A stretch of 33,245 nt of DNA from Gemmatimonadales bacterium (GCA_035311125.1 DATGDE010000149.1:1-33245); one strand, 5' to 3'; shown: positions 37 to 27,517, numbered from the stretch's first letter. Notes: a model not told the origin generated them from the letters alone. Numbers and translations: made by a program.

Positions 37-1149
37 TCACCCGGCGAGCACCGGCTCGAATTCGAGCGGTATGGGCCCTGTCGCTCCGGTCTCGTGCGGC
101 TGCCGGTAGACGAACGTCTTCCCGGCGTAGTTGCGCAACACCACCTTGTCATCGTCGATGGACTGGACGTACTCGGGCAGCAGGGGAATCTTGCCGCCGC
201 CGCCGGGGGCGTCGATCACGTAATGGGGCACGGCCAGTCCGCTGGTCCATCCCCGGAGCGCCTGGACGATCTCGAGGCCCTTCTCGACGGACGTGCGGAA
301 GTGCTCCGCTCCGGCGACCTGGTCGGCCTGGTAGATGTAGTAGGGCCGCACGCGCGCGGCGAGCAGTTTCTGCATCAGGCACTTCATCACCGCCGGATCG
401 TCGTTGATCCCCTTCAGCAGCACCGTCTGGCACCCCAGGGGAATCCCGGCGTCGGCCAGCATACCCAGTCCCCTGACGGCCGCGGGCGTCAGCTCGTCGG
501 GGTGGTTGAAGTGGGTGTTGATGTAGAGCGGGTGGTGCTGCCTCAGGATCGCGCACAGCTCGGGCGTGATGCGCTCCGGCAGGTGACAGGGGACGCGGCT
601 GCCGATGCGGAGGATCTCGAGGTGCGGGATGGCCCGCAGCCGGCCGCAGATTTCGTCCAGGCGCCGGTCGGACAGCATGAGCGGATCGCCGCCCGACATG
701 ATGACGTCGCGGATCTCGGTGTGCTCGGCCAGGTACTGGAAGGCCGATTCGAGCTGCGCCATCGGGATCTTCTCGGGATCGCCCACCTTGCGGCGCCGCG
801 TGCAGAAGCGGCAGTACGAGGCGCACACCGGCGAGACGAGGAACAGGGCCCGGTCGGGATAGCGATGCGTGATGTTGGGGACGGGGGAGTGGGCGTCCTC
901 GGCGAGCGAGTCCACGATGCCGTCCTCGATCTCGAGCTCCTGGACGGTGGGAACGTACTGGCGCCAGATGGGGTCGCCCGGCTCGCGGATCAGGTCCACC
1001 ATGGCGGGCGAGATGCGGAACTCGAAGTTCTCCGCCGCCTCCTTGAGGCGCTCGATGTCGCCCACGTGCTCGGGCCCGAACCGCTCCGCCAGGGCCTCGA
1101 GCGAGGCGATGCTGCGCTTACGAAGCAGCTCCTGCCAGGTCATGTCCAT
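37..1149 (-). CDS. kamA: L-lysine 2,3-aminomutase (radical SAM / PLP enzyme, KamA-AblA family)
   Basis: 370-aa ORF. Radical SAM CxxxCxxC present as CASYCRFCTRRR. Also SGGDPLML, PYYIYQADQVAGAEHFR and YVIDAPGGGGKIP (PLP-lysine motif). The two Asp positions linked to binding the lysine epsilon-amino group (QAD, VID) appear retained. Confidence 0.9.
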   Translation of the reverse strand: MDMTWQELLRKRSIASLEALAERFGPEHVGDIERLKEAAENFEFRISPAMVDLIREPGDPIWRQYVPTVQELEIEDGIVDSLAEDAHSPVPNITHRYPDRALFLVSPVCASYCRFCTRRRKVGDPEKIPMAQLESAFQYLAEHTEIRDVIMSGGDPLMLSDRRLDEICGRLRAIPHLEILRIGSRVPCHLPERITPELCAILRQHHPLYINTHFNHPDELTPAAVRGLGMLADAGIPLGCQTVLLKGINDDPAVMKCLMQKLLAARVRPYYIYQADQVAGAEHFRTSVEKGLEIVQALRGWTSGLAVPHYVIDAPGGGGKIPLLPEYVQSIDDDKVVLRNYAGKTFVYRQPHETGATGPIPLEFEPVLAG

Positions 1150-1621
1150 GCGTCAAGTCCTTCGTGTAGATCACCAGGTCGTCGCCGGGCGCGTAATAGC
1201 CCGGAATGGTGGCGGTCTTGGCGTAGCCACGGGCCTCGTAGAAAGCCCGCGTCGGCACATAGTCCGTCCGTGAGGACGTTTCCACGACGATCAGCCGGCC
1301 GCCGTCGGCCCTGAGCCTGCGCTCCACCGCTTCCAGGAGCCGGGTGCCGATCCCCTGGCCGTGCCGCGCCCGGTCCACCGCGATCCAGTACAGGTCCCAG
1401 GTGCCCGCCGTGTCCGGCGTCGGTCCCCAGCAGGCGTAGCCGATCAGCTCGGGGCCGTCGAACGCTCCCAGGAAGCGATAGTCGTCATCGCCGGCCAGCG
1501 CCTCGTCCAGCAGCTCGACCGCCGTCGCGACCTCGGCCTCGCGAAACAGGCCGGTATCGCGCACCAGCGTCTCAAGGCGTGCGCGGTGCGCGCGTTCGAC
1601 GGGACGGAGCGAGCAGCTCAC
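1118..1621 (-). CDS. GNAT family N-acetyltransferase (candidate beta-lysine or peptide acetyltransferase)
   Basis: 167-aa ORF with a GNAT acetyl-CoA motif (WIAVDRARHGQGIGTRLL). It overlaps the kamA start by 32 nt and the upstream ATP-grasp stop by 50 nt. Confidence 0.8.
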   Translation of the reverse strand: MSCSLRPVERAHRARLETLVRDTGLFREAEVATAVELLDEALAGDDDYRFLGAFDGPELIGYACWGPTPDTAGTWDLYWIAVDRARHGQGIGTRLLEAVERRLRADGGRLIVVETSSRTDYVPTRAFYEARGYAKTATIPGYYAPGDDLVIYTKDLTHGHDLAGAAS

Positions 1622-2591
1622 GCGCGGCCTTGGCGCCCTGGGCTTCGCGCAGCGCCACTTCGGCGATGCGGCGGATCAGCTCGGGGTAGTCCCACCCCGC
1701 CGCGGCCGCCATGCGTGACAACCCGGCGTCGTCGTTCAGGTCGGGATTGGGGTTGACCTCGAGCACCCAGGGACGGCCCGTATCGTCCACCCGCAGATCC
1801 ACCCGGCCGTACCCCTTGCCCTGCATCGTGCGCCAGGCGAGGTCGGCCACGCGCGTCAGGCGATCGGCGAGGCGCTGCGACACGGGCGCCGGGCAGACCG
1901 GAACGCTCCCCAGATCCTCCGCCGATCCGGTGTGCCACTTGGCGGCATACGTGAGGATCGGCCAACTCCCTTCGGGCATGCCGGTGAAGTCGATCTCGGC
2001 GACCGGCAGAATGCGGCTGCCCACGAAGCCGACGTTGAACTCGCGACCGGGGACGTACTGCTGGACCAGCACTTCGTCGAACTGCTCGGTCATGGCGGCG
2101 ATCTTGGCGCGCAGCGCCTTGCGTTCGGTGACGACCGAACCCCGGTCGAGCCCGGCGCTCGCGTCTTCGGCGGCGGGTTTCACGATCGCCGGGAGCGGGA
2201 AGGCGTCGTCGATCTTGCCCTGCGCGATGGTCCAGGGCGGGATCGGAACGCCGGCCTGAGACAGGATCGCATTCGCGGTCGCCTTGCGGCGACAGGCGGC
2301 GATCGTCCACGGGCCGCATCCCGTCACCGGGACGCCGGCGAATTCGAGCGCCGCCACCACGTGCTCCTCCCATTGGGAGAAGCCGTGGACCCCCTCGCAC
2401 AGGTTGAACACCAGGTCGGAGCGCCGCGCCTCGGAGAACCAGCGCATGTCGTGCCGCACGGGGAGCTTCCGGGCCGTATGCCCCATCGCTGCGAAGATGC
2501 GATCGATTTCGTTGACGGCCCTCATCACCCCGGCGATATCCTCGGCCGTCCAGTCTTCGGCGCCGGGGTCGTAGAGGATGGATACCCTCAC
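1572..2591 (-). CDS. ATP-grasp ligase, D-alanine--D-alanine ligase-like (paralog B)
   Basis: Lies in the frame of track ORF 1572..3167. The upstream part of that ORF is R/P/G-rich junk. I place the start at GTG 2591, giving (M)RVSILYDPG..., which overlaps the TGA of the preceding gene (GTGA). Product is 339 aa. Motifs: LPAIVKPAAEDASAG, REFNVGFVG, GYGRVDLRVDDTGRPWVLEVNPNPDL. Confidence 0.8.
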   Translation of the reverse strand: MRVSILYDPGAEDWTAEDIAGVMRAVNEIDRIFAAMGHTARKLPVRHDMRWFSEARRSDLVFNLCEGVHGFSQWEEHVVAALEFAGVPVTGCGPWTIAACRRKATANAILSQAGVPIPPWTIAQGKIDDAFPLPAIVKPAAEDASAGLDRGSVVTERKALRAKIAAMTEQFDEVLVQQYVPGREFNVGFVGSRILPVAEIDFTGMPEGSWPILTYAAKWHTGSAEDLGSVPVCPAPVSQRLADRLTRVADLAWRTMQGKGYGRVDLRVDDTGRPWVLEVNPNPDLNDDAGLSRMAAAAGWDYPELIRRIAEVALREAQGAKAARELLAPSRRTRAPRTP

Positions 2592-3658
2592 GCCGTGGCC
2601 CCGGCCCGCAACCCGGCCGCTGCCGGCAGCATGATCTCCCGCCCGGTCACCCGCTTCCAGGCGATCCGGACGACTTCCTGAATCAGCTCGTCGTAGGCGA
2701 ACCCGGCGGCCCGCGCCGCCTTGGGGAAGCAGCTGTTCATCCGCGGGTCGGGAAGGATTCCCGGCAGGGGGTTGAGCTCCACGACGTTGGGAACGCCCGC
2801 CTCGTCGACCCGGACATCGATGCGGCACCAGTCGCGGCAGCCTAGCGCCTGGTAGGCGTCGAGGGCGACGATCTCGATGTGGCGGTAGAGCTTCTCGGGG
2901 ATCCGGGCCGGGCACTCGAAGATGTCGAGCTGGTGCTCGGCGGTGTCCCAGATCCACTTGGCTTCGAAGCCGTAGACCGGCGTCGCGCCGGGCGGCAGGG
3001 TCGAGAAATCGAACCCCACGATCGGCAGGCAGTAGGCGTCGTCCCCGTTGCCGATGATGGCCACGGTGAACTCGGGACCGGGGAGATAGGTCTCGACCAG
3101 CACCGGCTGCCTGTAGGTCTCTAAGAGGAAAGAGACGCGCTCCCGCAGCTGCGCGCGGTGATGGCATAAGTTATTGGCGAATATGCCCTTACCTGACCCC
3201 TCCGCGACCGGTTTGGCGAACAGCGGATACGGCAGCCGCACCCGGGCCAGGTCCACCAGGTCCGTCACCACCGCGAAGCGGGCCGTCGGGACGTCGTGGA
3301 AGGACAGGATCTCCTTCGCGCGCGCCTTGTTCAGCGACAGCGACAGCGTGAGCGGGTCACTCGCCGTGTACGGGACGTTCAGGTACTCGCAAATCGCGGG
3401 GACGTGCGCTTCGCGATTCTGCCCGTAGAGGCCTTCGGCCATGTTGAAGACGAGCTGCACGCGGGCGCGGGCGAGCTTTTGTGGAAACGTGGCGTCGGCG
3501 TGGAGGCGGATGACGCTGCCGAAGAGACCGAGAGCCTGCTCCACCGCATCGATGGTGGATGGCTCGTCCCACTCGGCGTAGACGTCGCTGTGACGACTCG
3601 AGTCGTTGGCGGTGGTGTCGGGGTCGGGTTTCTGATTGTACGCGAGACCGATACGCAT
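2588..3658 (-). CDS. ATP-grasp ligase, D-alanine--D-alanine ligase-like (paralog A)
   Basis: 356-aa ORF starting MRIGLAYNQK. Motifs: PLFAKPVAEGSGKGI, PEFTVAIIGNG, CRDWCRIDVRVDEAGVPNVVELNPLPGI. AAGGAGG lies 14 nt upstream of the ATG. Confidence 0.85.
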   Translation of the reverse strand: MRIGLAYNQKPDPDTTANDSSRHSDVYAEWDEPSTIDAVEQALGLFGSVIRLHADATFPQKLARARVQLVFNMAEGLYGQNREAHVPAICEYLNVPYTASDPLTLSLSLNKARAKEILSFHDVPTARFAVVTDLVDLARVRLPYPLFAKPVAEGSGKGIFANNLCHHRAQLRERVSFLLETYRQPVLVETYLPGPEFTVAIIGNGDDAYCLPIVGFDFSTLPPGATPVYGFEAKWIWDTAEHQLDIFECPARIPEKLYRHIEIVALDAYQALGCRDWCRIDVRVDEAGVPNVVELNPLPGILPDPRMNSCFPKAARAAGFAYDELIQEVVRIAWKRVTGREIMLPAAAGLRAGATA

Positions 3659-3681
3659 GTGGTCTCGGGTGACCTCCTTAC

Positions 3682-3710
3682 AAAAAAGGGGCCGTTCGGC
3701 GAACGGTCCG
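3682..3710 (-). terminator. Intrinsic-terminator-like hairpin plus U6 in the leader of the ATP-grasp/GNAT/kamA operon (possible attenuator)
   Basis: Minus-strand RNA reads GGACCGUUC-GCC-GAACGGCCCC followed by UUUUUUG. The stem is 6 bp, an A/C mismatch, then 2 bp. The SD AAGGAGG (3673-3679) follows immediately. Confidence 0.4.
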
Positions 3711-3738
3711 TGGATCGCTAACTGCTTGTGCCTGTGAA

Positions 3739-3767
3739 TGAATATGACAAGACGACGAGATATGCAA
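3739..3767 (-). promoter_or_regulatory. Putative sigma70-like promoter in an AT-rich island
   Basis: Minus strand reads TTGCAT (3767-3762), a 17-nt spacer, then TATTCA (3744-3739). The segment 3733-3770 is conspicuously AT-rich in a very GC-rich window. Confidence 0.25.
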
Positions 3768-3781
3768 TAGGCAGGAGGCGA

Positions 3782-3898
3782 GTTGTCGGTTGTCGGTGAT
3801 CAGTGGTCGACGGTCTGGATCTCGCGAGCGAGTCCGGCACAACGAGTCAGCTTCGTCATCAGCGACTACTGATCACCGACCACTGACCACCGATCACG
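3782..3898. repeat. Intergenic palindrome with heptamer-periodic arms (unit GTRRTCR)
   Basis: Left arm: GTTGTCG GTTGTCG GTGATCA GTGGTCG (ACGGTCT). Right arm: GACTACT GATCACC GACCACT GACCACC GATCACG, the reverse complement of the same unit. A 13-nt perfect complement pairs 3792-3804 with 3868-3880. Confidence 0.75.
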
Positions 3899-3902
3899 TC
3901 GT

Positions 3903-4655
3903 TCACACCTTGTGATACGCGACGCGTGCCGACTCCACCCCATCGTCCGCGGAGTAAATCTCGAAGTCGGAGAAGAACGCCGGCGCCTCCCGCTGCAATA
4001 CCCGCAACGCGGCGATCGCCATGCGACGGATCTCGAGCTCCGCGCCTTCGCCGCAGCGCAGCTCGAGCATGGTGCGCCAGGCGCGCGCGTTGGCGGAGAC
4101 GACGATCTTCGTCTCGGTAGCGTTGGGCAGCACGCTGCGCGCCGCTTCGCGCGCCATCTTGCGCCGGTGCACCTTGTCGCTCACCCACTCGTAGCGCTTC
4201 ATCAACGCTTCGACCGCGCGCACGTACGCCTCCTGCGCCGCGGTCACCTGGCGCTCCCACTCCGCCTCCAGCGCCGTGTCGCCCTGGATCGCGGGCGGCA
4301 GCACGAACGCGGCATGGGATTCGTCCACGTAGCGTTGCGACAGCTGCGAGTAACCGAACCCCGCACGGTGCCGCACCAGCTCGTGCGAGCAGGACCGGCT
4401 GATCCCCTCGATCAACAGGACGTAGACGGCGTGCTCCAGCACCGATCCGTGACCCTGCTTCTTGATGTTGTCGAGATACTCCGGGGTGGGACGCTGCGCC
4501 GGGTTGTGCTGGCTCATGTAGCAGATGCGTCCGGCGAACTCGGCGAGCCGCTCGCCGCCGGTCGCCTCCCCCTGCCATTGCACGGCGAGATGCGCCGGCT
4601 CGAGGAACTCGGGGCGGGCGATGAGGGTGATGCGGGGGGCGCGGAAGATTTCCAT
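3903..4655 (-). CDS. thyX: FAD-dependent thymidylate synthase
   Basis: 250-aa ORF with the ThyX signature RHRxxxxSQxSQRY (VRHRAGFGYSQLSQRY). Confidence 0.9.
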   Translation of the reverse strand: MEIFRAPRITLIARPEFLEPAHLAVQWQGEATGGERLAEFAGRICYMSQHNPAQRPTPEYLDNIKKQGHGSVLEHAVYVLLIEGISRSCSHELVRHRAGFGYSQLSQRYVDESHAAFVLPPAIQGDTALEAEWERQVTAAQEAYVRAVEALMKRYEWVSDKVHRRKMAREAARSVLPNATETKIVVSANARAWRTMLELRCGEGAELEIRRMAIAALRVLQREAPAFFSDFEIYSADDGVESARVAYHKV

Positions 4656-4683
4656 GCAGATGTCGGGTGCCAGGGGTCCGGTG

Positions 4684-6246
4684 TCAGGGTTGCCGGGTCA
4701 GCTCCAGCTTCGGCGTACTCCAGGCGGCGTTGCGCTCGAGCGCGCGCAGCCGGGTGGCGATGTCCGCGGGGATTCGTGCGGCGTCATCCCCGACCTTCAA
4801 GTCAGCGAGCGGCGTCCAATCGGGCGCGGGGAGTATAACACCGGGATTGAAGATGGACTTGGGGTCGTAGACCGCCTTGAGGTCCCGGAAGCGGCTCATC
4901 AGCTCGGGGCCGAAGAATCGCTCGAGCACGCCGGCGCGCAGCCGGCCGTCGCCGTGCTCGCCGCTCGGCGTGCCGCCCAGGTCGCGCAGCAGGTCCAGCA
5001 CGTCGGCGTAGAGTGCGTGCAGCGCCTCCCGCCATCCGGCTGCGCTCAGATCCGGCAGGGCGTTCACGTGCACGTGCCCGTCCCCCGCATGGCCGAACAT
5101 CGCGACCGGGATCTCGTGACGCGCCGCAGCGGCCCGCAGCCCCGCGACGTACTCGGCCAGACCGACGAGCGGTACGCAGCCGTCTTCGACGACCTGGAGG
5201 GAGCGGCGCGTCTCGGGGAGCCGGGCCAGCACCGGACTCGCCAGCCTCCGGACTCCCCAGAGACGCTCCAACCCGGCCCGGTCGATCGCGGTCTCGGCCT
5301 GGAGGATCAGGTCCTTCAGTCCGCGGACTGCGTCTCCTACCGCGCCACGGGCGGCCGCCTCCGTCTCGCGCTCGAACTCGACCAGCAGCAGTGCATCCGT
5401 CCCGGGCGGCACCTCACCCCCGCCCGCGACGACGAAATCCAGCAGGGTGCGGTCCAGCAGCTCGACCGCCGAGGGGTCGAGGGTGACGAGGTAGCTCGCG
5501 GCGGCGCCGAGGCTGTCCGGGCCGTCCAGGGCCAACGCCGCGCCGGCCGCCGCGGGAGGAATCGGGTCGAGGCGCCACTCGACGGCCGTCACAAAGCCCA
5601 GGGTCCCTTCGGCGCCGATGAACAGATCCAGCTCATCGCCCGAAGCCGCGAAGGCGTCCAGCGCGTAGCCCGACGAGTTCTTGCCGGTGCGCGGGAAGCG
5701 CTCTTCGACGAGGCGGCGGGTATCGAGGCTCAGGTGCCAGGGCCCCGCGCCGCCCCCACGGCGGACGCTGCGCACCGCGCCGTCCGCGCCGACGATCTCG
5801 ATGCTCTCGACCCAGCGGCGGACGCTGCCGTAGCGCACCGTGCGCGGGCCCGACGCGTTCGTGGCGACCATGCCGCCCGAAGTGGCGAAGGCGCCGGAGG
5901 AGGGATCGGGAGGAAGCCGCAGCCCGTGAGGACGGGCGGCGTCGTTCACCTCGGCCCAGGTGACGCCGGCGCCGGCGCGCGCGATGCGGCGGACGGGATC
6001 CACCTCCAGGGCGCGGAACCCTCGCGAGCAGTCCACGATGGTGCCGCGGCCGATGTTGCCGCCGGGCATCCCGCTGCCCGCGCCGCGCGGGATGAGGGGC
6101 GCGCCCCGACGCTCGGAGTCGCGCACCAGCTGCACCACTTCATCGGTGTTGCGGGGAATCGTTACCGCTGCGGGGAGGATGCGGTAAATGCCGGCGCCTT
6201 CGGAGTACGCGGAGCGGGTACGGAGGTCATGAAAGGAGGTGCCCAC
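4684..6246 (-). CDS. FAD-linked oxidase / FAD-binding dehydrogenase (GlcD / D-lactate dehydrogenase-like)
   Basis: 520-aa ORF. The N-terminus is PCMH-type FAD-binding (IPRGAGSGMPGGNIG). The C-terminal FAD-oxidase domain contains GEHGDGRLR. Confidence 0.8.
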   Translation of the reverse strand: MGTSFHDLRTRSAYSEGAGIYRILPAAVTIPRNTDEVVQLVRDSERRGAPLIPRGAGSGMPGGNIGRGTIVDCSRGFRALEVDPVRRIARAGAGVTWAEVNDAARPHGLRLPPDPSSGAFATSGGMVATNASGPRTVRYGSVRRWVESIEIVGADGAVRSVRRGGGAGPWHLSLDTRRLVEERFPRTGKNSSGYALDAFAASGDELDLFIGAEGTLGFVTAVEWRLDPIPPAAAGAALALDGPDSLGAAASYLVTLDPSAVELLDRTLLDFVVAGGGEVPPGTDALLLVEFERETEAAARGAVGDAVRGLKDLILQAETAIDRAGLERLWGVRRLASPVLARLPETRRSLQVVEDGCVPLVGLAEYVAGLRAAAARHEIPVAMFGHAGDGHVHVNALPDLSAAGWREALHALYADVLDLLRDLGGTPSGEHGDGRLRAGVLERFFGPELMSRFRDLKAVYDPKSIFNPGVILPAPDWTPLADLKVGDDAARIPADIATRLRALERNAAWSTPKLELTRQP

Positions 6247-6292
6247 GGCTCGAGAAGAATAGCACGACTTCCGGCTCCGGGCTCCTGCAGAT

Positions 6293-7084
6293 TCACGCGA
6301 CGGGCGGCCATTGCCACGCCGTCCGCTGTCCCGCGGTCAACCACTGCAGTCGGCGCGAGAGGCCGGCAGCCGCGAATGCACCCTCGATGTCCTGCCGGGA
6401 TTCGGAGAAGTGCTCCCAGCCTTCGTAGTGCACCGGCACGATGGGCGCCGGGCCGAACGCTCGCGCCGCCTCGACCCCTTCCGCGGCCGTCAGCGTGAGC
6501 GGCTGGTCACCGGCCGCGCGCACTTTCGCGGCCCCGAAAAACAGGACCGCGGCAGCGATGGAGAAGCGCTGCGCGACCTCTTGAACGCCATCGTACCACA
6601 CGGTATCACCCGACACGTAGATGGCATGCCGCGGTGGCGGTTCGTCGTCCCAGCGCAGCACGAAACCGATCACGGGACCGCGGTCGCCCTGGGCTGGTCC
6701 GTGGCGTGCCGGGGTGGCGACGACGCGCAGCACGCGGCCATCGGGCCCCGTCAGCTGGAATGCATCCCACGGCGCCAGGCCGTGGGCTCCCGCGCCGAGT
6801 CGCTCGGCAGCGGCGGTGGTCGTGAGCGTTCTCCCGAGGCTGCTCAGGAGGTCGCGTCCGGCACGATCGAGGTTGTCGAAGTGATGGTCGTGACTCAGCA
6901 GCACGGCGTCTACCCGCCCCAGCTGCTGCGGCGCCATCGCCGGGCTCTGCGTCTTGTGGAGGGTGTAGCTCGGCGTCGGATACGCGCTGCCCGCGGGATC
7001 GAAGGTGGGATCCGTGAGCAGCCGCAGCCCGTTCCACTCGATCAGCAGCGTAGGGCCGCCGATATAGGTCAGGTGGAGACTCAA
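6293..7084 (-). CDS. MBL-fold metallo-hydrolase
   Basis: 263-aa ORF with an HxHxDH-type motif (LLSHDHHFDNLD). Confidence 0.75.
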   Translation of the reverse strand: MSLHLTYIGGPTLLIEWNGLRLLTDPTFDPAGSAYPTPSYTLHKTQSPAMAPQQLGRVDAVLLSHDHHFDNLDRAGRDLLSSLGRTLTTTAAAERLGAGAHGLAPWDAFQLTGPDGRVLRVVATPARHGPAQGDRGPVIGFVLRWDDEPPPRHAIYVSGDTVWYDGVQEVAQRFSIAAAVLFFGAAKVRAAGDQPLTLTAAEGVEAARAFGPAPIVPVHYEGWEHFSESRQDIEGAFAAAGLSRRLQWLTAGQRTAWQWPPVA

Positions 7085-7091
7085 GAACCGC

Positions 7092-7568
7092 TCAGGTCCC
7101 GAACTTCTGCTTCAGCGCATCGATCAGCTGTTGAGTGATGCGGTACCCCTCCGACCCCTGCGGCACGATTTCCTCGAGATCCCGTTCGGGGCGCGACGGG
7201 TCGAGCATCGGGCGGTACACCGCCTCGACGGTGAGCTGGGTCTTGCCGGGAATGTTGGGATCGGCCCAGCAGCGGATCTTCACCGTGGAGAGGAGGTCGC
7301 CCGGATCGGCGTCGCCGAACACCGAGGCGTGGGTGCGCAGGTTGTACCACGCGGTCTCCACGTACCCGTCCTGCGGACTCGACCACTGTGCCTGCAGGCC
7401 CTGGCTCGTGAGCCACCCCACCGCTTCGGGAACGACGCGGGCCGCGGGCGCGTCGAGCACGATGACGAGCGCCTGCGGGTAGGGAAGGAAGGGCGGCCGG
7501 GTGGTGACGGGGGAGCAGGCGGCAAGGAGAAGGCCAAATGCGGATCTGAAGGGTCGGGCACGGGCCAT
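7092..7568 (-). CDS. Putative lipoprotein, function unknown
   Basis: Lies in the frame of track ORF 7092..7802, but the first 78 codons are R/T-rich junk. An internal ATG at 7568 gives MARARPFRSAFGLLLAAC SP, a signal peptide with a lipobox. Product is 158 aa. Confidence 0.6.
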   Translation of the reverse strand: MARARPFRSAFGLLLAACSPVTTRPPFLPYPQALVIVLDAPAARVVPEAVGWLTSQGLQAQWSSPQDGYVETAWYNLRTHASVFGDADPGDLLSTVKIRCWADPNIPGKTQLTVEAVYRPMLDPSRPERDLEEIVPQGSEGYRITQQLIDALKQKFGT

Positions 7569-7632
7569 CAGCTTGGCAGCGGCACTCCCACGGCGAATCC
7601 GCAATTCGCTTCCCGCAATCCGCAACGGCATG

Positions 7633-8217
7633 TCAGTGCGTATGCGGCGGCGTGCCGGGCGGATCCACGTGCGTGTGCGGCGCCGAATCAGGCATCGCGC
7701 CTGCCGCATCGTGGTCGTCCGCCTCACCCGCCTCGTGATGGTGTCCCTTGGCGCGGTCCTGGATCTCCGCCTGTAGCTTCGCGGTAGGGATACCAACTGC
7801 ATGGTCGAACACCAGCTCGCCGCCCTCTATGCCGGTGCGCACCAGCAGCACGAGCCCCACGATCATGAGCAGCTTGAGCACGCGATCCTCGGTGGGGCGC
7901 AGCTGGAAGCGGCGCACCAGCTTCCAGGCGAGCACGAGGGTGAACAGGCTCATGGTGATGAGGGCGAGCTTCTCGTGCACGCCCATGATCTCATGGGCGG
8001 CATCTCCGTGCTCGACGGCGTCTTCCGCGAGCTCTCCCAGGATCACGGCCGCCCAGCCGCCGACGACGCCGGCCCAGAGCGTCCAGATGCCGGCCCAGAC
8101 GAGCGAGTCGCGTTTCAGCAGCCACCCCATCAGATCGAACAGGACGGCGACCAGGAGCAGCGCCGCCGGGAGGTCGTTCACCGCGGCGTGCAGGCGTGGC
8201 AGGTCGTAACCGATCAT
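7633..8217 (-). CDS. Integral membrane protein (DUF2231-like) with a His-rich C-terminal tail
   Basis: 194-aa ORF with about 4 hydrophobic segments. The tail is GHHHEAGEADDHD...HTHVDPPGTPPHTH. Confidence 0.6.
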   Translation of the reverse strand: MIGYDLPRLHAAVNDLPAALLLVAVLFDLMGWLLKRDSLVWAGIWTLWAGVVGGWAAVILGELAEDAVEHGDAAHEIMGVHEKLALITMSLFTLVLAWKLVRRFQLRPTEDRVLKLLMIVGLVLLVRTGIEGGELVFDHAVGIPTAKLQAEIQDRAKGHHHEAGEADDHDAAGAMPDSAPHTHVDPPGTPPHTH

Positions 8218-8245
8218 GCGGGTTTGTCGCTCCTCTGGAGTCGGG

Positions 8246-9133
8246 TTAGAGGCCCAGGCTCGAGACCACCGGCGGGTTGGCCGAGTAGTCGTAGAAGCCT
8301 TTGCCGCTCTTCCTGCCGTACATGCCGGCGAGCACCATGCGCTTGAGCAGCGGCGGCGGCGCGTACTTCTGCTCCCGGTACTCCGCGAACATGATCTCCG
8401 CGATCTTGTAGGTGGTGTCGATCCCCACCAGGTCGAGCAGCGTGAGCGGACCCATGGGGTACCCGCAACCCAGCTGCATGGCCTTGTCGATGTCGGTCAC
8501 GCTGCCGACGCCGTGCTCCAGCGCCCGGATGGCGTCGAGCAGGTAGGGGACGAGCAGCAGGTTCACGATGAACCCGGAGTTGTCCTTCGCCGCCACCGGC
8601 TCCTTGCCGAGCGAGCGGGCGAAGGCGAACGCCCGCTTGAACGCTTCGTCCGACGTCGTGACCGTGCGCACGACCTCCACCAGCTGCATCAGCGGCACCG
8701 GATTGAAGAAGTGCAGCCCGACGAACCGGTCGGGGCGCTTGGTGGCTGCGGCCATCGCCGCGATCGTGAGGCTCGAGGTGTTGGAGGCGAAGATCGTCCC
8801 GGCGGGACACAGAGCGTCCAGCTCCTTCCACAGGGCGTTCTTCACGTCGAGGTCCTCGGTGACCGCCTCCACTACGACGTCGCAGGCCTTCAAGTCGGCG
8901 GTCACGGTGGTGAACGACAGGCGCCGCAGGGCGGCGTCACGGTCCGCCGGCTGGAGCTTGCCCTTCTCCACGAACTTGGCGAGGGACTTCTCGATGCCGG
9001 CTTTCGCCTTGTCGAGGATCGGCTGCGCCACGTCGCGCACGATCGTGTCGTACCCTGCGGCGGCGGCGACCTGCGCGATGCCGCTTCCCATCAATCCGCA
9101 CCCCAGCACCCCAACGCGCTGAATGTCGCTCAT
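8246..9133 (-). CDS. hbd: 3-hydroxybutyryl-CoA / 3-hydroxyacyl-CoA dehydrogenase
   Basis: I place the start at the internal ATG 9133 (MSDIQRVGVLGCGLMGSGIAQV, an NAD Rossmann motif). Product is 295 aa. The downstream segment is typical of the family (HFFNPVPLMQLVEV). Confidence 0.9.
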   Translation of the reverse strand: MSDIQRVGVLGCGLMGSGIAQVAAAAGYDTIVRDVAQPILDKAKAGIEKSLAKFVEKGKLQPADRDAALRRLSFTTVTADLKACDVVVEAVTEDLDVKNALWKELDALCPAGTIFASNTSSLTIAAMAAATKRPDRFVGLHFFNPVPLMQLVEVVRTVTTSDEAFKRAFAFARSLGKEPVAAKDNSGFIVNLLLVPYLLDAIRALEHGVGSVTDIDKAMQLGCGYPMGPLTLLDLVGIDTTYKIAEIMFAEYREQKYAPPPLLKRMVLAGMYGRKSGKGFYDYSANPPVVSSLGL

Positions 9134-9143
9134 GGATCTCTCG

Positions 9144-9965
9144 TTAGATCTGGAATTGTTTGCGGATCTCATCGGCGATCCGCACGAATGCGCTGGCCCG
9201 CGGACCAGGCAGTGCGTGCTCGGCCCGGATCTCCCCGCGCTCCAGCCGGTCCAGCACCTGCTCGAGCCCGACCTCTATCCGCCCCAGCTGGGCGCCGCGG
9301 CCGGCGACGAGCGTCGTGAGCGCGAGCACCCCGAAGCCGAGCGCCGGCAACGCCAGGAACGGGAACAGCACCCCGAGCGTCGCCGCCACGACCGACCCGG
9401 CGGCCCCGGTTCCCGCGAGGACGGCAGCGCCCCCGATCCGGGCCCGGCGGAGATTGCGCACATCCGCGCTCAGCCGCACGTGACAGAATCCCGGCTCCAG
9501 CTGCGTCACCTGACCGGCGACTTCGACCGCCCGGGTGAGCGCGTAGCTGCGGCCGCCGGCCCTGAGCCCCCGCTGCATGGACGCGATAAATCCGACCTGC
9601 GGCTCCCAGGTGATCCGATCGGGATAGCGGCGCTTCACGCGCAACAGCTCTTCGTTTTCCATCCAGGCCGACAACGCCCGCTCGATGCCGGCGCGGTCAC
9701 CCGGCACGACGCGGTGCGCGTCGAGGCGCCCGGGCCCTACGAGCGACCAGGCCAGGCCCCGCTCGCGGCGCTCCTCGGGGAGGCGGGTCCGCTCCTCGAG
9801 CAGCGCCTGCTTCAGGTAACGGGCGGGGATGCCGACGTCGTTGCCGAGCGCGACGAGCTCCGCTTCGGTGAGGCCCTCTCCGATGTCGCGCTCGCCGGTC
9901 TGGAGCTCGGCCGCGCGCTGGATGATCCGGTCGAGGGCCTCCCGGCTGATCAACTCGCCCGCCAT
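9144..9965 (-). CDS. Hypothetical membrane protein coupled to the SPFH gene
   Basis: 273-aa ORF with high GC3. It has a soluble N-terminal half, two hydrophobic segments (GGAAVLAGTGAAGSVVAATLGVLFPFLALPALGFGVLALTTLVA) and an amphipathic tail. The ATG lies 2 nt after the TAG of the upstream gene. Confidence 0.6.
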   Translation of the reverse strand: MAGELISREALDRIIQRAAELQTGERDIGEGLTEAELVALGNDVGIPARYLKQALLEERTRLPEERRERGLAWSLVGPGRLDAHRVVPGDRAGIERALSAWMENEELLRVKRRYPDRITWEPQVGFIASMQRGLRAGGRSYALTRAVEVAGQVTQLEPGFCHVRLSADVRNLRRARIGGAAVLAGTGAAGSVVAATLGVLFPFLALPALGFGVLALTTLVAGRGAQLGRIEVGLEQVLDRLERGEIRAEHALPGPRASAFVRIADEIRKQFQI

Positions 9966-9967
9966 GG

Positions 9968-10810
9968 CTACGCCCGGACCTTTTCCTTGTCGACGGGACT
10001 CGCAGGCAGGGACTCGCCTGCCGCGCGCGCCGGGAGGGCGGGGATGGCGCTGTCGGCCCGCCGGCCCGCCACCGTGTCGAGGATGCCCTTGAAGAGATCG
10101 ATCGGGACCGGGAAGATCGTGGTCGAATTCTTCTCGGACGCGATCTCCGTGACCGTCTGGAGATAGCGCAGCTGAATCGCGGCCGGCTCCCGGCCGATGA
10201 TCGCGGCGGCCTGCGCCAGCTTCTCGGACGCCTGCAGCTCGCCCTCGGCGTTGATCACCTTGGCGCGCCGCTCCCGCTCGGCTTCCGCCTGGCGGGCCAT
10301 CGCCCGCTTCATTTCGGGCGGCAGGTCCACGTCCTTCACCTCGACCGCCGAGACCTCGATGCCCCAGTCCTCGGCGCGCTGGTCGATGATCCGCTTGAGG
10401 ATCGCGTTGATCTTCTCGCGATTCGCCAGCAGCTCGTCGAGCTCCGTCTCTCCCAGCACGGAGCGCAGCGTCGTCTGGGCGAGCTGGCTCGTCGCATAGA
10501 GATAGTTCTCGACGCCGATCACCGCCTTCACCGGGTCCTTCACCAGCATGTACAGGACCGCGTTCACCTTGATCGAGATGTTGTCGCGGGTGATCACGTC
10601 CTGCGGCGGGATGTCGAGCGCCATCACGCGCAAGCTGACCTTCTGCATGCGGGCGAACAGGGGAGGCAGATAGATCAGGCCCGGTCCCTTGGCGCCCCAG
10701 GAGCGGCCCAGGAAGAAGTAGACGGCGCGCTCGTACTCGCGCAGCACGCGGAGGCCGGAGAAGAGGTAGAAGCCGACCCCGGCCAGGATACCCAGGAGGA
10801 CGTTGCCCAT
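9968..10810 (-). CDS. SPFH / band-7 (stomatin-like) protein
   Basis: 280-aa ORF with an N-terminal TM segment. The SPFH core contains [27 protein letters not shown], followed by an [10 protein letters not shown] coiled region. Confidence 0.9.
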
Positions 10811-10823
10811 GCGGGCCCCTTTC

Positions 10824-12026
10824 TCAGGCGGGGAAGGCTTCGACGATCACGGCCAGGCCCTGTCCGCCGCCGATGCACGCCGAGCCCAGGCCGTAGCGCT
10901 TGCCCGCGCGACGCAGGGCGTGCAGCAGGTGCAGGGTGATACGCGTGCCGCTCGCGGCCAGCGGATGGCCGATGGCGATGGCGCCGCCGTGCACGTTGGT
11001 CTTCGCGCGGTCGAGCCCCAGCTCCTTCTCCACCGCGAGATACTGCGGCGCGAACGCCTCGTTCACTTCAATCAGGTCCATTTGGGCGAGCGTCATGCCG
11101 GCTTTCTGGAGCGCCTTGCGTGCGGAAGGGGCGGGTCCGATCCCCATGTACTTCGGCTCCACGCCGACCACCGCCCAGGCCACCAGCCGTCCCAGCGGCT
11201 TCAGACCGTGCGCTTTGGCGTACCCCTCGCTCGCGATGACCGTCGCGGCGGCGCCATCGGAAATCCCGGACGCGTTGCCCGCGGTGACGACGCCGTCCTT
11301 CTTGAAGTAGGGCTTCAGTCCCGCGAGACCCTCGAGCGTCGTCTCCGGCCGCATGTGCTCGTCGGCGCGAAAGTCGACCGTCTGCCCCTTCTTCTTCACC
11401 GGGACGGGGATCACTTCGTCGGTGAAGACGCAGTCGTCCCAGGCCTTCTTGGCGCGCTGCTGCGAGTCCACCGCGACCTGGTCTACCTCGGCGCGGCCGA
11501 GCTTGTACTTGTCGGCGAGGTTCTCGGCGGTCTCGGCCATGGAGAAGCCGCACTGCGGGTCCTTCAGCGACTCCCACAGCAGGTCCTCGAGCGGGGCGGG
11601 GCCGAGCCGCAGGCCCCAGCGCGCGCCGCGGACGACGTGGGGGGCCTGACTCATCGACTCGCCGCCTCCGGCGAGCACCGCCTCGGCCTCGCCGAGGACG
11701 ATGAGCTGGGCCCCCTGGGTGATGGCCTCGAAACCCGAGCCGCACAGGCGGTTCACCGTGACCGCGGGCGTCTCGACCGGGAGTCCGGCCTTGAGGGCGA
11801 CGTGGCGCGCCATGTAGATCGCGTCGGCGGAGGTCTGGAGCGCGTTGCCGAATATCGTGTGGCCGATGTCGGCGGCCGGGACGCCCGAGCGCTCGATGGC
11901 GTGGCGGGCGGCGATCGCGCCCAGGTCGATGGCGGAAAGATCCTTCAGGGAGCCGCCGAAGGCGCCGAAGCCCGTGCGGACTCCCGAGAGAAAGACGACG
12001 TCGGTTTGACTGCCTTGGGTCTTCAC
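10824..12026 (-). CDS. Acetyl-CoA C-acetyltransferase (thiolase II)
   Basis: The upstream 125 codons of track ORF 10824..12401 are junk. I place the start at GTG 12026, 8 nt after GGAG, giving a 400-aa product. GTG 12032 is an alternative start. Thiolase motifs: [34 protein letters not shown]. Confidence 0.9.
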
Positions 12027-18825: not shown

Positions 18826-19396
18826 GGACCTCCCGATCGGGGTCGTAGGGATCGTACTTGCCGCGCGCGCGTTGCTGCGCGAGCCAGGTGTCGAATCCCG
18901 AGGCGACGAGGCCGTTGGAGCGCTCCTGCCGCTCCGCGGCGCGCTGGGCGAGGTAGTTGGCGTACTCGTTCTTCGGGTGATCGGCGTGCCCCCGCACCCA
19001 CTTCCACTCGACGGCATGGGCGGCGGTGGCCTGGTCGAGCTTCTGCCACAGCTCGAGGTTCTCGATCGGGCCGGTCTTCCGCTTCCAGCCGCGCGCCTTC
19101 CACCCCGGCAGCCACTCCCGCATTCCCTTCACCAGGTATTCGGAGTCGGAGACGTACGTGACCTGTGCGTGCTGCCACTGGCGCCGGATCCATTCGAGCG
19201 CGGCGATGGCGCCGGCCAGCGCCATGCGATTGTTGGTCGTCTGCGGGGAGCACTCGTAGAAATCCCAGCGGGCGACGCTGTCGCCGGCCGGCGCCTCGAC
19301 CAGCGCCGCGTTGCCGCCGGGACTCGGCTTGGTGCGGTCGTTGCCGAGGCAGCTCTCGTCGGCATGGACGAGCACCGGTATCGCGGGCGACGCCAT
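18812..19396 (-). CDS. rnhA: Ribonuclease HI
   Basis: I place the start at the internal ATG 19396, which overlaps the upstream TGA (ATGA). Product is 194 aa. Motifs: VHADESCLGN, TNNRMALAGAIAAL, SDSEYLV, WKWVRGHADHPKNEYAN. Confidence 0.9.
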   Translation of the reverse strand: MASPAIPVLVHADESCLGNDRTKPSPGGNAALVEAPAGDSVARWDFYECSPQTTNNRMALAGAIAALEWIRRQWQHAQVTYVSDSEYLVKGMREWLPGWKARGWKRKTGPIENLELWQKLDQATAAHAVEWKWVRGHADHPKNEYANYLAQRAAERQERSNGLVASGFDTWLAQQRARGKYDPYDPDREVHEPA

Positions 19397-20145
19397 CAGG
19401 GTTGGATGGCGACCGGGAGGTCGGTGTGCAGCAGGATCTCCTCGGTATGGGAGGCGACGCTCGGCCGCCGCTCGCCGAGGCCGCGCTCCACGTGCGCCCC
19501 CGCGAACAGCGCGTCGGCGTGGACCTCGCGCACCAAACGCGCGATCACCTCGGCCGCCGACCCCTCCGCGAGATGCGTCTGGAACTGCACGCCCAGCAGC
19601 GACAGCTCCGCCTCGGCCTGGCCCGCGACCAACGTTCCCTCGTTCCGGTCGCGATACGCGTGAATCACGTGCACCGTGCTGCCCGCGACGCTCGCGAACC
19701 GGGCCGCGAGCTCGAGCGCGCGGCGGTTGCGTCCGTCGAACGCCACGGCGCAGGCGCGCATGGGCGATGCCGCTCCGCCGCACACGATCACCGGGTGCTC
19801 GACTAGCCGGATGAGAGACGCCGCGGTGCTGCCGATGGCGCCCGCCCCGGCCCGCTCGGTATGGAGTCCCCGCCGGCCCACCAGCGCGGCGTCGACCTGG
19901 TCCGCGAGCTCGGCCAGGTTGACGTCGGGCGCCCCCTGTCGCTCCACCGCCTCGACCTCGAGACCCCCCGCCTGCACGCGGAACCGTGCCCGCTCGAGCA
20001 GCGTCGCCGCGGCATCCTTGTCGTCCTCCGCGACGACGGCGACGACGATCACCGAGTGAAAGCGCCGCGCCAGAATGATCGCCTGTTCCAGGGCCGCATC
20101 GGCGTGCGGACTCCCATCCAGGCCGACCAGCAGGCGCGTGAACAT
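19396..20145 (-). CDS. Universal stress protein (tandem Usp domains)
   Basis: 249-aa ORF starting MFTRLLVGLDGSPHADAAL. A second Usp-like half is also present. Confidence 0.8.
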   Translation of the reverse strand: MFTRLLVGLDGSPHADAALEQAIILARRFHSVIVVAVVAEDDKDAAATLLERARFRVQAGGLEVEAVERQGAPDVNLAELADQVDAALVGRRGLHTERAGAGAIGSTAASLIRLVEHPVIVCGGAASPMRACAVAFDGRNRRALELAARFASVAGSTVHVIHAYRDRNEGTLVAGQAEAELSLLGVQFQTHLAEGSAAEVIARLVREVHADALFAGAHVERGLGERRPSVASHTEEILLHTDLPVAIQP

Positions 20146-20164
20146 CAGGCGGCGGGCAGCGTGC

Positions 20165-20401
20165 TCACGGCAGCACCGCGAAGGTTTCGAGATCGCGCAG
20201 CCGGAAGCTGAGGAGCTCTCCGGTCATGGGCAGCCGGGCCTGCAGCGTCTCCTCGCGGTCCGCCACGTCCAGCCGCTCGGCCACGACGACGTACTCGGTG
20301 CCGCGTCGCGACAACGCCACCCGGCGCCGCTCGCGCACGGCGCGCTCCAGGGCATCCAGCGCGTCGGGGGTGAGCGACCGGTATTCAGGGATGACGCCCA
20401 T
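20165..20401 (-). CDS. Small hypothetical protein
   Basis: 78-aa ORF with high GC3. It starts 9 nt downstream of the selD stop. I recognise no motif. Confidence 0.45.
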   Translation of the reverse strand: MGVIPEYRSLTPDALDALERAVRERRRVALSRRGTEYVVVAERLDVADREETLQARLPMTGELLSFRLRDLETFAVLP

Positions 20402-27446: not shown

Positions 27447-27517
27447 CTATCCTCCGCTGGTTGTAGCCGCTGGGGGCCTATAGCTTACCTGCCTAACTTC
27501 CCGACGCAAGTGAGCGC

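Follow-up and report, generated by a model that had tools for sequence, protein, structure and literature searches.

Here we ask what is made by a compact group of four genes that lies at one end of a stretch of 33,245 nucleotides (nt) from the genome of an uncultured soil Gemmatimonadales bacterium (GCA_035311125.1, DATGDE010000149.1:1-33245; the whole of this stretch is called the window below). The genes are tightly packed on the minus strand, with a high GC content at third codon positions, and encode two Ddl-like ATP-grasp ligases (AG1 and AG2), a small N-acetyltransferase of the GNAT family and a radical-SAM aminomutase of the KamA family. Our overall reading, to which we give about an even chance, is that they form one self-contained operon for the synthesis of a small acetylated peptide of beta-lysine, possibly a solute; that beta-lysine is handled by these enzymes within a single pathway, whatever its end product, we hold to be probable. 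The evidence is comparative throughout, and the loci compared come mostly from metagenome-assembled genomes (MAGs) or unbinned contigs, whose taxonomic labels are as reliable as the bins.

The answer depends in the first place on whether the four genes belong together. Gene order was compared in two sets of loci, one of species-level genomes (80 best representative loci, all from Gemmatimonadota, 64 of them with enough downstream sequence to be judged) and one of metagenome loci (80 loci from a scan seeded with distant family members, 39 with enough flanking sequence). The order AG1-AG2-GNAT-KamA was kept in 56 of the 64 Gemmatimonadota loci, and the GNAT gene was missing in one; a MAG of Gemmatimonas (L035) is among the genomes with the operon. 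Among the metagenome loci the four genes stood in the order of the window in 26 of 39, with KamA lying within 5 kb in 34; the AG1 proteins of this set were mostly about 40-60% identical to that of the window (a few, Gemmatimonadota-like, reached about 70%) and the GC content of the loci ranged between 33% and 70%. Because the order is maintained at these frequencies in both sets, the arrangement is not due to chance, and the neighbourhood is strongly conserved well beyond the window's own lineage.

The position of the cassette is equally stable: across the whole order it adjoins thyX at a fixed syntenic chromosomal site, where the proteins are 50-90% identical, and all-against-all clustering of the flanking open reading frames (ORFs) of 49 long loci yielded no other recurrent family, and no transporter, peptidase or regulator among them. 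These observations bear on the idea that the product is a secreted secondary metabolite, a beta-lysine peptide akin to an antibiotic, for which the beta-lysine chains of streptothricin would be a parallel. Beta-lysine is present in several antibiotics and ATP-grasp ligases build bacilysin, pheganomycin and dapdiamide, and this is what speaks for such a product; against it stand the fixed site with its well-conserved proteins, flanks in which exporter, resistance and tailoring genes do not recur, and the presence of the cassette in DPANN archaea. We consider a secreted metabolite very improbable.

The enzyme that should supply the building block is KamA, which matched the lysine 2,3-aminomutase of Clostridium subterminale (PDB 2A5H) with an E value of 4.8e-109. 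A first-pass annotation, made from the sequence of the window alone, had picked out by eye the hallmarks of this family, and alignment to 2A5H places all of them correctly: the radical-SAM cluster CxxxCxxC is formed by C109, C113 and C116 (CASYCRFC), SGGDPL begins at residue 152, K320 of the GGGGK motif corresponds to K337, the lysine that binds pyridoxal phosphate (PLP), and D276 (YQAD) and D313 (VIDAPGGGGK) correspond to D293 and D330. Structure 2A5H and glutamate 2,3-aminomutase identify the latter two as the aspartates that bind the epsilon-amine of lysine. Given the conservation of these specificity residues, KamA very probably makes beta-lysine from lysine. The protein passes the general model of the KamA family (TIGR00238; 277.9 bits against a cut-off of 199.2) and falls under the cut-offs of both the AblA equivalog model (TIGR03820; its highest score, 443.8 bits against 525.4, covering model positions 9-364 of 417) and the EpmB model (TIGR03821; 230.7 bits against 369.3). 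The shortfall on the AblA model is explained by a missing C-terminal region, since KamA ends at residue 370, before the C-terminal part of the model, and has no C-terminal cysteines. In the clostridial enzyme such cysteines form, together with C268, the zinc site between subunits, and C268 too is replaced in KamA, by an aspartate (NDCVHVM in 2A5H, NDDPAVM in the window). Judged by these features, KamA is a member of a distinct short subfamily of KamA-family enzymes.

AG1 and AG2 are paralogues, 30% identical over their full length, and both matched the Pfam family PF07478 (E values of 2.7e-29 and 3.8e-26, respectively). Profile hidden Markov models thus agree with the proposal of the first-pass annotation that the operon contains two tandem Ddl-like ligases, just as they returned a KamA-family enzyme and a GNAT for the other two genes. 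The question is whether the two are genuine cell-wall Ddl enzymes. Their best match in NCBIfam, the Ddl subfamily NF002378, gave 160.7 bits for AG1 and 133.5 bits for AG2 where the cut-off is 243, and the Ddl model TIGR01205 gave 125 and 118 bits (cut-off 245.65). The AlphaFold (AF2) model of AG1, with a predicted local distance difference test score (pLDDT) of 93 and a predicted template modelling score (pTM) of 0.91, retrieved Ddl enzymes as its top matches in Foldseek at only 24% identity (template modelling scores of 0.73 normalised to the query, TMq, and 0.82 normalised to the target, TMt). In the alignment with DdlB of Escherichia coli, AG1 residues K111, K149, E153, K234, R279, D281, E294 and N296 occupy the positions of DdlB K97, K144, E148, K215, R255, D257, E270 and N272; AG2 keeps all of these catalytic positions as well, and across both ligase types and their orthologues the catalytic ATP-grasp residues are invariant or nearly so. 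The equivalent of DdlB E15 is also retained in both paralogues, in an alignment whose DdlB sequence was matched to the retrieved one over residues 58-305. The substrate pocket is another matter: where DdlB has H63, Y216 and M259, both paralogues carry E, W and R, S150 becomes Ala in AG2, AG1-type proteins carry a four-residue insertion ahead of the position of DdlB S281, and the N-terminal GGxSxE motif of Ddl is replaced in these ligases. AG1 and AG2 are therefore likely to be active ligases with a substrate pocket that is not that of Ddl, and the acidic and basic residues added to it would suit a cationic side chain and an additional carboxylate.

That KamA and the ligases work together is best seen in gene fusions. 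Fusions of KamA with AG1, about 700 amino acids long, make up a large family (more than 100 clusters at 90% identity). Their hosts are Thermoplasmatota, Methanocellales, Woesearchaeota, Nanoarchaeota, Spirochaetales and Deltaproteobacteria, and the only name given to the proteins is "KamA family radical SAM protein". The reverse order, AG-KamA, exists too (P0167). The KamA domains of the fusions retain the PLP lysine and both specificity aspartates, and their ligase domain is closer to AG1 (39-43% identity) than to AG2 (about 30%). A second, AG2-type ligase stands next to the KamA-AG1 fusion, on its own in a Woesearchaeota locus (L093) and in two copies in a deltaproteobacterial MAG (L094); elsewhere the fusion adjoins a fusion of AG2 with a GNAT (L095), and in Methanocellales KamA-AG1, AG2 and GNAT follow one another (L178). 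Tandem AG-AG fusions of 650-730 amino acids are common, which supports the view that the two ligases act as a pair. Taken together, the KamA-AG1, AG2-GNAT and AG-AG fusions show that the functions are coupled. The module of KamA-AG1 with AG2 extends to Woesearchaeota and Nanoarchaeota (both DPANN) and to Patescibacteria, and homologues of AG1 amount to at least 1007 representatives at 50% identity (E <= 1e-30), those with a name being labelled D-alanine--D-alanine ligase, ATP-grasp domain protein or hypothetical protein. The evolutionary core is KamA, AG1 and AG2, with the N-acetyltransferase as a frequent fourth member, and the parsing of the first-pass annotation, a kamA-GNAT pair to which ligases had been added, has to be revised accordingly: the GNAT is the member that is sometimes missing or drawn from another subfamily.

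The fusions and their distribution also allow us to dispose of the view that the genes are neighbours by coincidence, namely ordinary D-Ala-D-Ala or D-Ala-D-X ligases and a D-alanine acetyltransferase that happen to adjoin kamA. Ddl is indeed the top match of the ligases in both sequence and fold, and the name given to the structure nearest to the GNAT (2R7H, see below) mentions D-alanine. These points are outweighed by ligase scores well under all Ddl cut-offs, by the H63/Y216/M259 replacements and the AG1-type insertion, by neighbourhoods with no mur, ftsQ or ddl-type genes, by KamA-ligase fusions in both domain orders and by the occurrence of the family in Thermoplasmatota, Methanocellales and DPANN archaea. 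The archaea of these groups have no murein. We find a coincidence hardly credible, and the narrower assignment of AG1 and AG2 to the true cell-wall Ddl enzymes is ruled out by the same scores, pocket changes, gene context, murein-free archaeal hosts and KamA fusions.

The GNAT matched the Pfam families Acetyltransf_1, _7 and _10 and gave four weak, sub-threshold matches in NCBIfam, to rimI (43.9 bits) and AAC(6') models. The first-pass annotation had pointed to the pairing of kamA with an acetyltransferase of the AblB/YodP type, to which this GNAT does not belong, for the NCBIfam profile search returned no match to an AblB model and the closest solved relative is PDB 2R7H (E value 3.3e-32, GNAT residues 17-154). 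This structure was deposited by a structural genomics programme as a "putative D-alanine N-acetyltransferase of GNAT family", and the D-alanine label appears to be an annotation only. Orthologues of the GNAT with 30-55% identity hold the same position in diverse metagenome loci. In the archaeal cassettes the acetyltransferase belongs to another GNAT subfamily (Acetyltransf_3/4/8) that gives no match to the window protein at an E value of 1e-5, and this replacement by a different subfamily suggests that selection acts on the acetylation step itself and not on one particular protein.

The affinities of these acetyltransferases lead to a further alternative, in which the ligases would attach beta-lysine or a beta-lysyl peptide to a macromolecule (a translation factor, a ribosomal protein or the cell envelope) and a RimI/RimJ-like GNAT would acetylate the new N-terminus. 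The GNATs are nearest to protein N-terminal acetyltransferases (weak matches to rimI and to archaeal Nat, Acetyltransf_3 in archaea), and the module is retained in DPANN archaea and Patescibacteria, which would hint at a core role in the cell. These two groups are generally described as having small or minimal genomes. ATP-grasp enzymes that modify proteins are well known in RimK, LysX and tubulin-tyrosine ligase, and Lys34 of elongation factor P (EF-P) in E. coli carries an attached beta-lysine. Set against this, the flank clustering found no recurrent efp, ribosomal-protein or carrier-protein gene near the cassette, KamA scores 444 bits on the AblA model and 231 bits on that of EpmB (cut-off 369), and a single attachment would need one ligase only. 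We regard modification of a macromolecule as quite unlikely.

Relatives that lack the full cassette carry information about the substrates of this ligase branch. Three distinct genomes of Myxococcota and Bdellovibrionota were examined; in each of them the gene immediately after an AG-AG fusion of 680-725 amino acids (L088, L091, L092) encodes a Peptidase_S58, and neither KamA nor GNAT is present at these loci. Among S58 enzymes, DmpA and BapA have been characterised: both are beta-aminopeptidases, and they act upon peptides with an N-terminal beta-alanine, for example carnosine, which is itself made by an ATP-grasp ligase (PMC9235088). The AG-AG/S58 arrangement looks like a separate, uncharacterised pair of synthetase and hydrolase. 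On plasmid pTHIMO01 of Thioflavicoccus mobilis (L177, 2515-7996) a Ddl-like ATP-grasp gene, whose product is 33% identical to AG1, has as neighbours a diaminobutyrate transaminase, SbnA, an SbnB-like ornithine cyclodeaminase and a convergent KamA-family gene; the cluster may encode the synthesis of a diamino-acid peptide, on a conjugative plasmid. Both kinds of relatives tie the ligase branch to beta- or diamino acids and so support, short of proof, beta-lysine as a substrate.

The same relatives also provide arguments for a polymer, either a storage material or a polycation. AG1 and AG2 would here alternate like the two sites of cyanophycin synthetase to give a homopolymer of beta-lysine, linked through its epsilon- or its beta-amine, or else a copolymer that also takes in an acidic amino acid, and the GNAT would cap or prime the chain. 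Two distinct ligase sites are kept adjacent or within one polypeptide; the AG-AG fusion directly upstream of Peptidase_S58 resembles the pairing of cphA with cphB in each of the three genomes; and a homologue is clustered with KamA and with supply genes for diaminopropionate (DAP) and diaminobutyrate (DABA) at L177. The KamA cassette itself has a hydrolase beside it in none of the 49 long loci, AG1 and AG2 have no Mur-ligase-like or primer-binding domain, and a ligase that makes polymers cannot be told by its sequence from one that makes dipeptides. A polymer seems to us unlikely. We further observe that the plasmid search returned distant ATP-grasp homologues only, at about 33% identity: many of them (L176 and others), 31-35% identical to AG1, are carried by symbiosis plasmids of Rhizobium, Sinorhizobium and Bradyrhizobium, and the homologue of S. 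medicae adjoins a transporter gene of the major facilitator superfamily (MFS) and insertion sequence (IS) elements.

Placing these results into a pathway leads us back to the small acetylated peptide. KamA would convert L-lysine into beta-lysine (3,6-diaminohexanoate). AG1 and AG2 would then each activate a carboxylate with ATP as an acyl-phosphate and form one amide bond; they are probably paired, most likely as a heterodimer if the Ddl dimer is taken as the model, with AG1 as the putative ligase that takes the product of KamA directly. From the fusions and the synteny we infer that the ligases use beta-lysine, which could thus be linked, by way of two amide bonds, with common amino acids or with additional beta-lysine. 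Finally the GNAT would cap the molecule by acetylating an amine that is still free. What most likely results would be a small N-acetylated di- or tripeptide of the cytoplasm with beta-lysine in it, and its most probable role that of a compatible, nitrogen-rich solute in hosts that live in dry or saline places. In which order the steps run, where acetylation takes place, how large the product is and what it does physiologically are all parts that we infer. Genes for an exporter or a hydrolase are lacking, and this favours a small cytoplasmic product, as do the acetyl cap, the hosts' habitat and one Woesearchaeota locus, where the module lies near genes for MscL, a Na+/H+ exchanger and CorA, a weak hint of an osmotic function.

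Several facts weigh against this reading. In seven of the 64 Gemmatimonadota loci AG1-AG2-GNAT have no adjoining kamA, and in one of these (L040) a SusC/RagA gene stands there instead; three others, from Gemmatimonadales genomes (L041, at 10625-11965, L043 and L054), have at the kamA position a divergent KamA-family gene of 446 amino acids, whose product is 28% identical to the KamA of the window and under the family cut-off. The position of KamA below the AblA cut-off and its lack of zinc-site cysteines make its exact substrate and product uncertain, and the ligase family has no member with an established substrate. The name chosen by the depositors of 2R7H points to D-alanine as the acceptor of the acetyl group, if seemingly as an annotation only, and the acetyltransferase is absent from several versions of the module (L093, L094 and the KamA-AG loci), so that capping is not essential to the core chemistry. 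N-epsilon-acetyl-beta-lysine serves as a solute with no ligase at all, and two ligases could mean a polymer or an elaborate target. We know of no tripeptide compatible solute, and the osmolyte role is built on analogy and on one gene neighbourhood.

Weighing both sides, we place a small di- or tripeptide as the product somewhat short of an even chance, and the osmolyte role, by analogy, is more tentative still. Doubtful, in our view, is the broader proposition that KamA-AG1-AG2 constitutes a domain-spanning machine, either for a cyanophycin-like polymer of beta-lysine or for an EpmA-independent, ATP-grasp-based beta-lysylation of protein or envelope; if it were true, it would add a new class of biomolecule or modification to Gemmatimonadota, Thermoplasmatota, DPANN archaea and others. 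Three assignments of a different kind were tried and rejected: an anti-phage system (none of the four proteins matched a PADLOC model), a cluster for a graspetide or another ribosomally made peptide with post-translational modifications (RiPP; no precursor ORF in or beside the operon) and a locus for the modification of EF-P (no linkage to efp or EpmA).

The organisation of the operon is given in Table 1.

Table 1. Coding regions and leader elements of the operon (positions counted from the first nucleotide of the window)
Feature	Position	Strand	Description
AG1	2588-3658	minus	Type-1 Ddl-fold ATP-grasp ligase, operon gene 1; ORF, 356 amino acids
AG2	1572-2591	minus	Type-2 Ddl-fold ATP-grasp ligase, paralogue of AG1; ORF, 339 amino acids, GTG start
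GNAT	1118-1621	minus	Small GNAT N-acetyltransferase; ORF, 167 amino acids from GTG at 1621
KamA	37-1149	minus	KamA-family radical-SAM/PLP aminomutase, last operon gene; ORF, 370 amino acids
Promoter-like conserved blocks	3739-3771	minus	CCTATTGCATATC ... TCATATTCA; columns invariant across Gemmatimonadales leaders
GC-rich hairpin	3682-3709	minus	GG-A-CCGTTC / GAACGG-CC followed by T6; terminator-like, just upstream of the Shine-Dalgarno sequence
Translation start of AG1	3656-3679	minus	Shine-Dalgarno AAGGAGG (3679-3673), invariant 14-nt spacer TCACCCGAGACCAC, ATG (3658-3656); identical in closest relatives

The four overlapping minus-strand coding regions described in the first-pass annotation were all recovered, together with its three overlaps. 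AG1 and AG2 meet in GTGA at 2591-2588, where the GTG of AG2 and the TGA of AG1 have two bases in common, AG2 and GNAT overlap by 50 nt (1572-1621) and GNAT and KamA by 32 nt (1118-1149). The second of these overlaps holds only if the GNAT starts at the GTG at 1621. In an identical contig of 4.5 kb (GCA_050264235.1) the gene call of NCBI starts it at 1564, 19 codons later, to give a protein of 148 amino acids, and this start would strip an N-terminal strand that is present in homologues. The longer form is favoured because gene calls in relatives again show an overlap of about 50 nt and because in 2R7H 34 residues precede the position aligned to GNAT residue 17. The stop codon of kamA lies 36 nt from the beginning of the window; since the gene downstream of it differs among relatives, encoding an M1 peptidase or an alcohol dehydrogenase or lying on the opposite strand, the operon ends at kamA.

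Upstream, the operon has a leader of its own, as the first-pass annotation had proposed: the spacer of 244 nt between thyX and AG1 (3659-3902) contains the promoter-like blocks and the hairpin, and both are kept across relatives. A scan of the leader for the sigma-70 consensus found no site. In six loci (L014, L026-L029 and L032) corresponding blocks (TTGCGTATC ... TCGTATTCT) lie in the region of about 60 nt upstream of AG1, only about 10 nt from its ATG, and there is neither hairpin nor Shine-Dalgarno sequence. Their conservation argues for the blocks as the operon promoter, and their position in these relatives, close to the ATG with no hairpin in between, would place the hairpin of the others inside the 5' untranslated region; in the six loci themselves it suggests an mRNA that is leaderless or nearly so. 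Folding of individual sequences found a stable hairpin abutting a run of T in 47 of 77 distinct Gemmatimonadota leaders. For most of the 47 the distance between the end of the T-run and the start codon is 17-25 nt, and for five it is about 42 nt. Stem sequences vary among the leaders, yet they pair (CCGTTC/GAACGG, CCGC/GCGG, CGTCTC/GGGACG). RNAalifold returned no structure for 33 aligned leaders, in which indels shift the 5' arm out of register. The hairpin has the look of an intrinsic terminator; its role may be that of an attenuator or of an element of RNA stability. It is no known riboswitch, since Rfam gave nothing at the gathering threshold in the whole window and a permissive scan of the leader gave chance-level matches to miRNA and snoRNA families.

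Beyond the leader, the region 3903-12000 contains thyX and genes for an FAD-linked oxidase, a metallo-beta-lactamase-fold protein, a DUF2231 protein, a 3-hydroxyacyl-CoA dehydrogenase and a Band 7 protein, and in relatives the next gene encodes a thiolase; this upstream order is syntenic across Gemmatimonadales, so that the cassette occupies a stable position of the core genome and is no island. Elsewhere in the window, more than 15 kb from the cassette, we find a tandem universal stress protein (19396-20223, minus strand) and a protein of 881 amino acids with a glycosidase domain resembling mannosylglycerate hydrolase (MGH1-like/GH116; 27497-30142, plus strand).

A pathway this compact and conserved implies that a metabolite derived from beta-lysine, or possibly a polymer or modification, has gone unrecognised; soils and sediments may contain it in abundance. 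Gemmatimonadota rank with the commoner soil phyla and are noted for dry soils; the module spans, besides them, Thermoplasmatota, relatives of methanogens, DPANN archaea and other largely uncultured lineages. Its elucidation would define substrates for a large, unnamed branch of Ddl-like ATP-grasp enzymes, would widen what lysine 2,3-aminomutase is known to serve, so far fermentation, N-epsilon-acetyl-beta-lysine, antibiotics and EF-P, could open a way into osmotic or desiccation adaptation in the host groups and would enlarge the set of enzymes for beta-peptide biocatalysis. One component of the cassette family already has a solved structure, the homologue 2R7H.

How does this cassette compare with known systems? 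The enzyme families are all known and their logic resembles that of AblA/AblB, Ngg and PylB/PylC, while the combination seems undescribed: the first-pass annotation had recognised no pathway that matches the set, and full-text searches of the literature (subscription-only literature lying outside their scope) likewise found no description of a pathway that combines KamA with ATP-grasp ligases, a paper on Pelobacter dealing with the standard ablA/ablB pair only. With AblA/AblB (KamA/YodP) the cassette has in common a lysine-type KamA with its pair of aspartates, a GNAT, and the character of a small, self-contained set with no transporter. The product of AblA/AblB, N-epsilon-acetyl-beta-lysine, is a compatible solute of methanogens and some bacteria. 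The cassette differs from that pair in its two ATP-grasp ligases, which are the conserved partners of KamA, in a KamA under the AblA cut-off that has no C-terminal zinc-site region, and in a 2R7H-like, RimI-like GNAT of 167 amino acids with no AblB match, which in some lineages is absent or of another subfamily. With the Ddl/VanA family AG1 and AG2 share the three-domain ATP-grasp fold (TMq 0.73) and conserved catalytic residues, and acyl-phosphate chemistry is therefore expected of them; unlike Ddl they are sited with KamA and a GNAT and are present in murein-free archaea, at 24% identity, with sub-cut-off scores and an altered pocket.

Other systems offer partial precedents for the chemistry. 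Ngg/AsnO, which makes N-acetylglutaminylglutamine amide (NAGGN), likewise combines a GNAT with ATP-grasp chemistry to produce an N-acetylated peptide osmolyte without ribosomes, and the AG2-GNAT fusion of L095 echoes the bifunctional Ngg; the cassette differs in its two Ddl-like ligases, its predicted beta-lysine building block from a radical-SAM mutase and the lack of a recurrent amidotransferase. CphA/CphB also has two sites of ATP-dependent ligation and one product with a basic amino acid, and relatives of the ligase pair adjoin a peptidase gene; in contrast to CphA, AG1 and AG2 contain PF07478 only (with a marginal PF02655 in AG2) and neither a Mur-ligase-type nor a primer-binding N domain, and the cassette has no hydrolase. 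In PylB/PylC, lysine is rearranged by a radical-SAM mutase before an ATP-grasp ligase couples the product, a non-proteinogenic amino acid, to an amine, much as we propose here, whereas PylB lies outside the KamA family, PylC was absent among the PDB sequence matches of the ligases at an E value of 1e-5, and the cassette has no PylD and has two ligases and a GNAT. EpmB/EpmA resembles it in that a KamA-family aminomutase feeds beta-lysine into an ATP-dependent amide bond; EpmA, however, is a paralogue of lysyl-tRNA synthetase (LysRS) where the cassette ligases are ATP-grasp enzymes, KamA reaches 231 bits on the EpmB model against a cut-off of 369, and no efp lies nearby. Carnosine synthase with DmpA/BapA, which differs in that S58 is absent from the KamA cassette, is a precedent in chemistry: an ATP-grasp ligase that takes a beta-amino acid as acyl donor, and an S58 enzyme that degrades the resulting peptides (PMC9235088).

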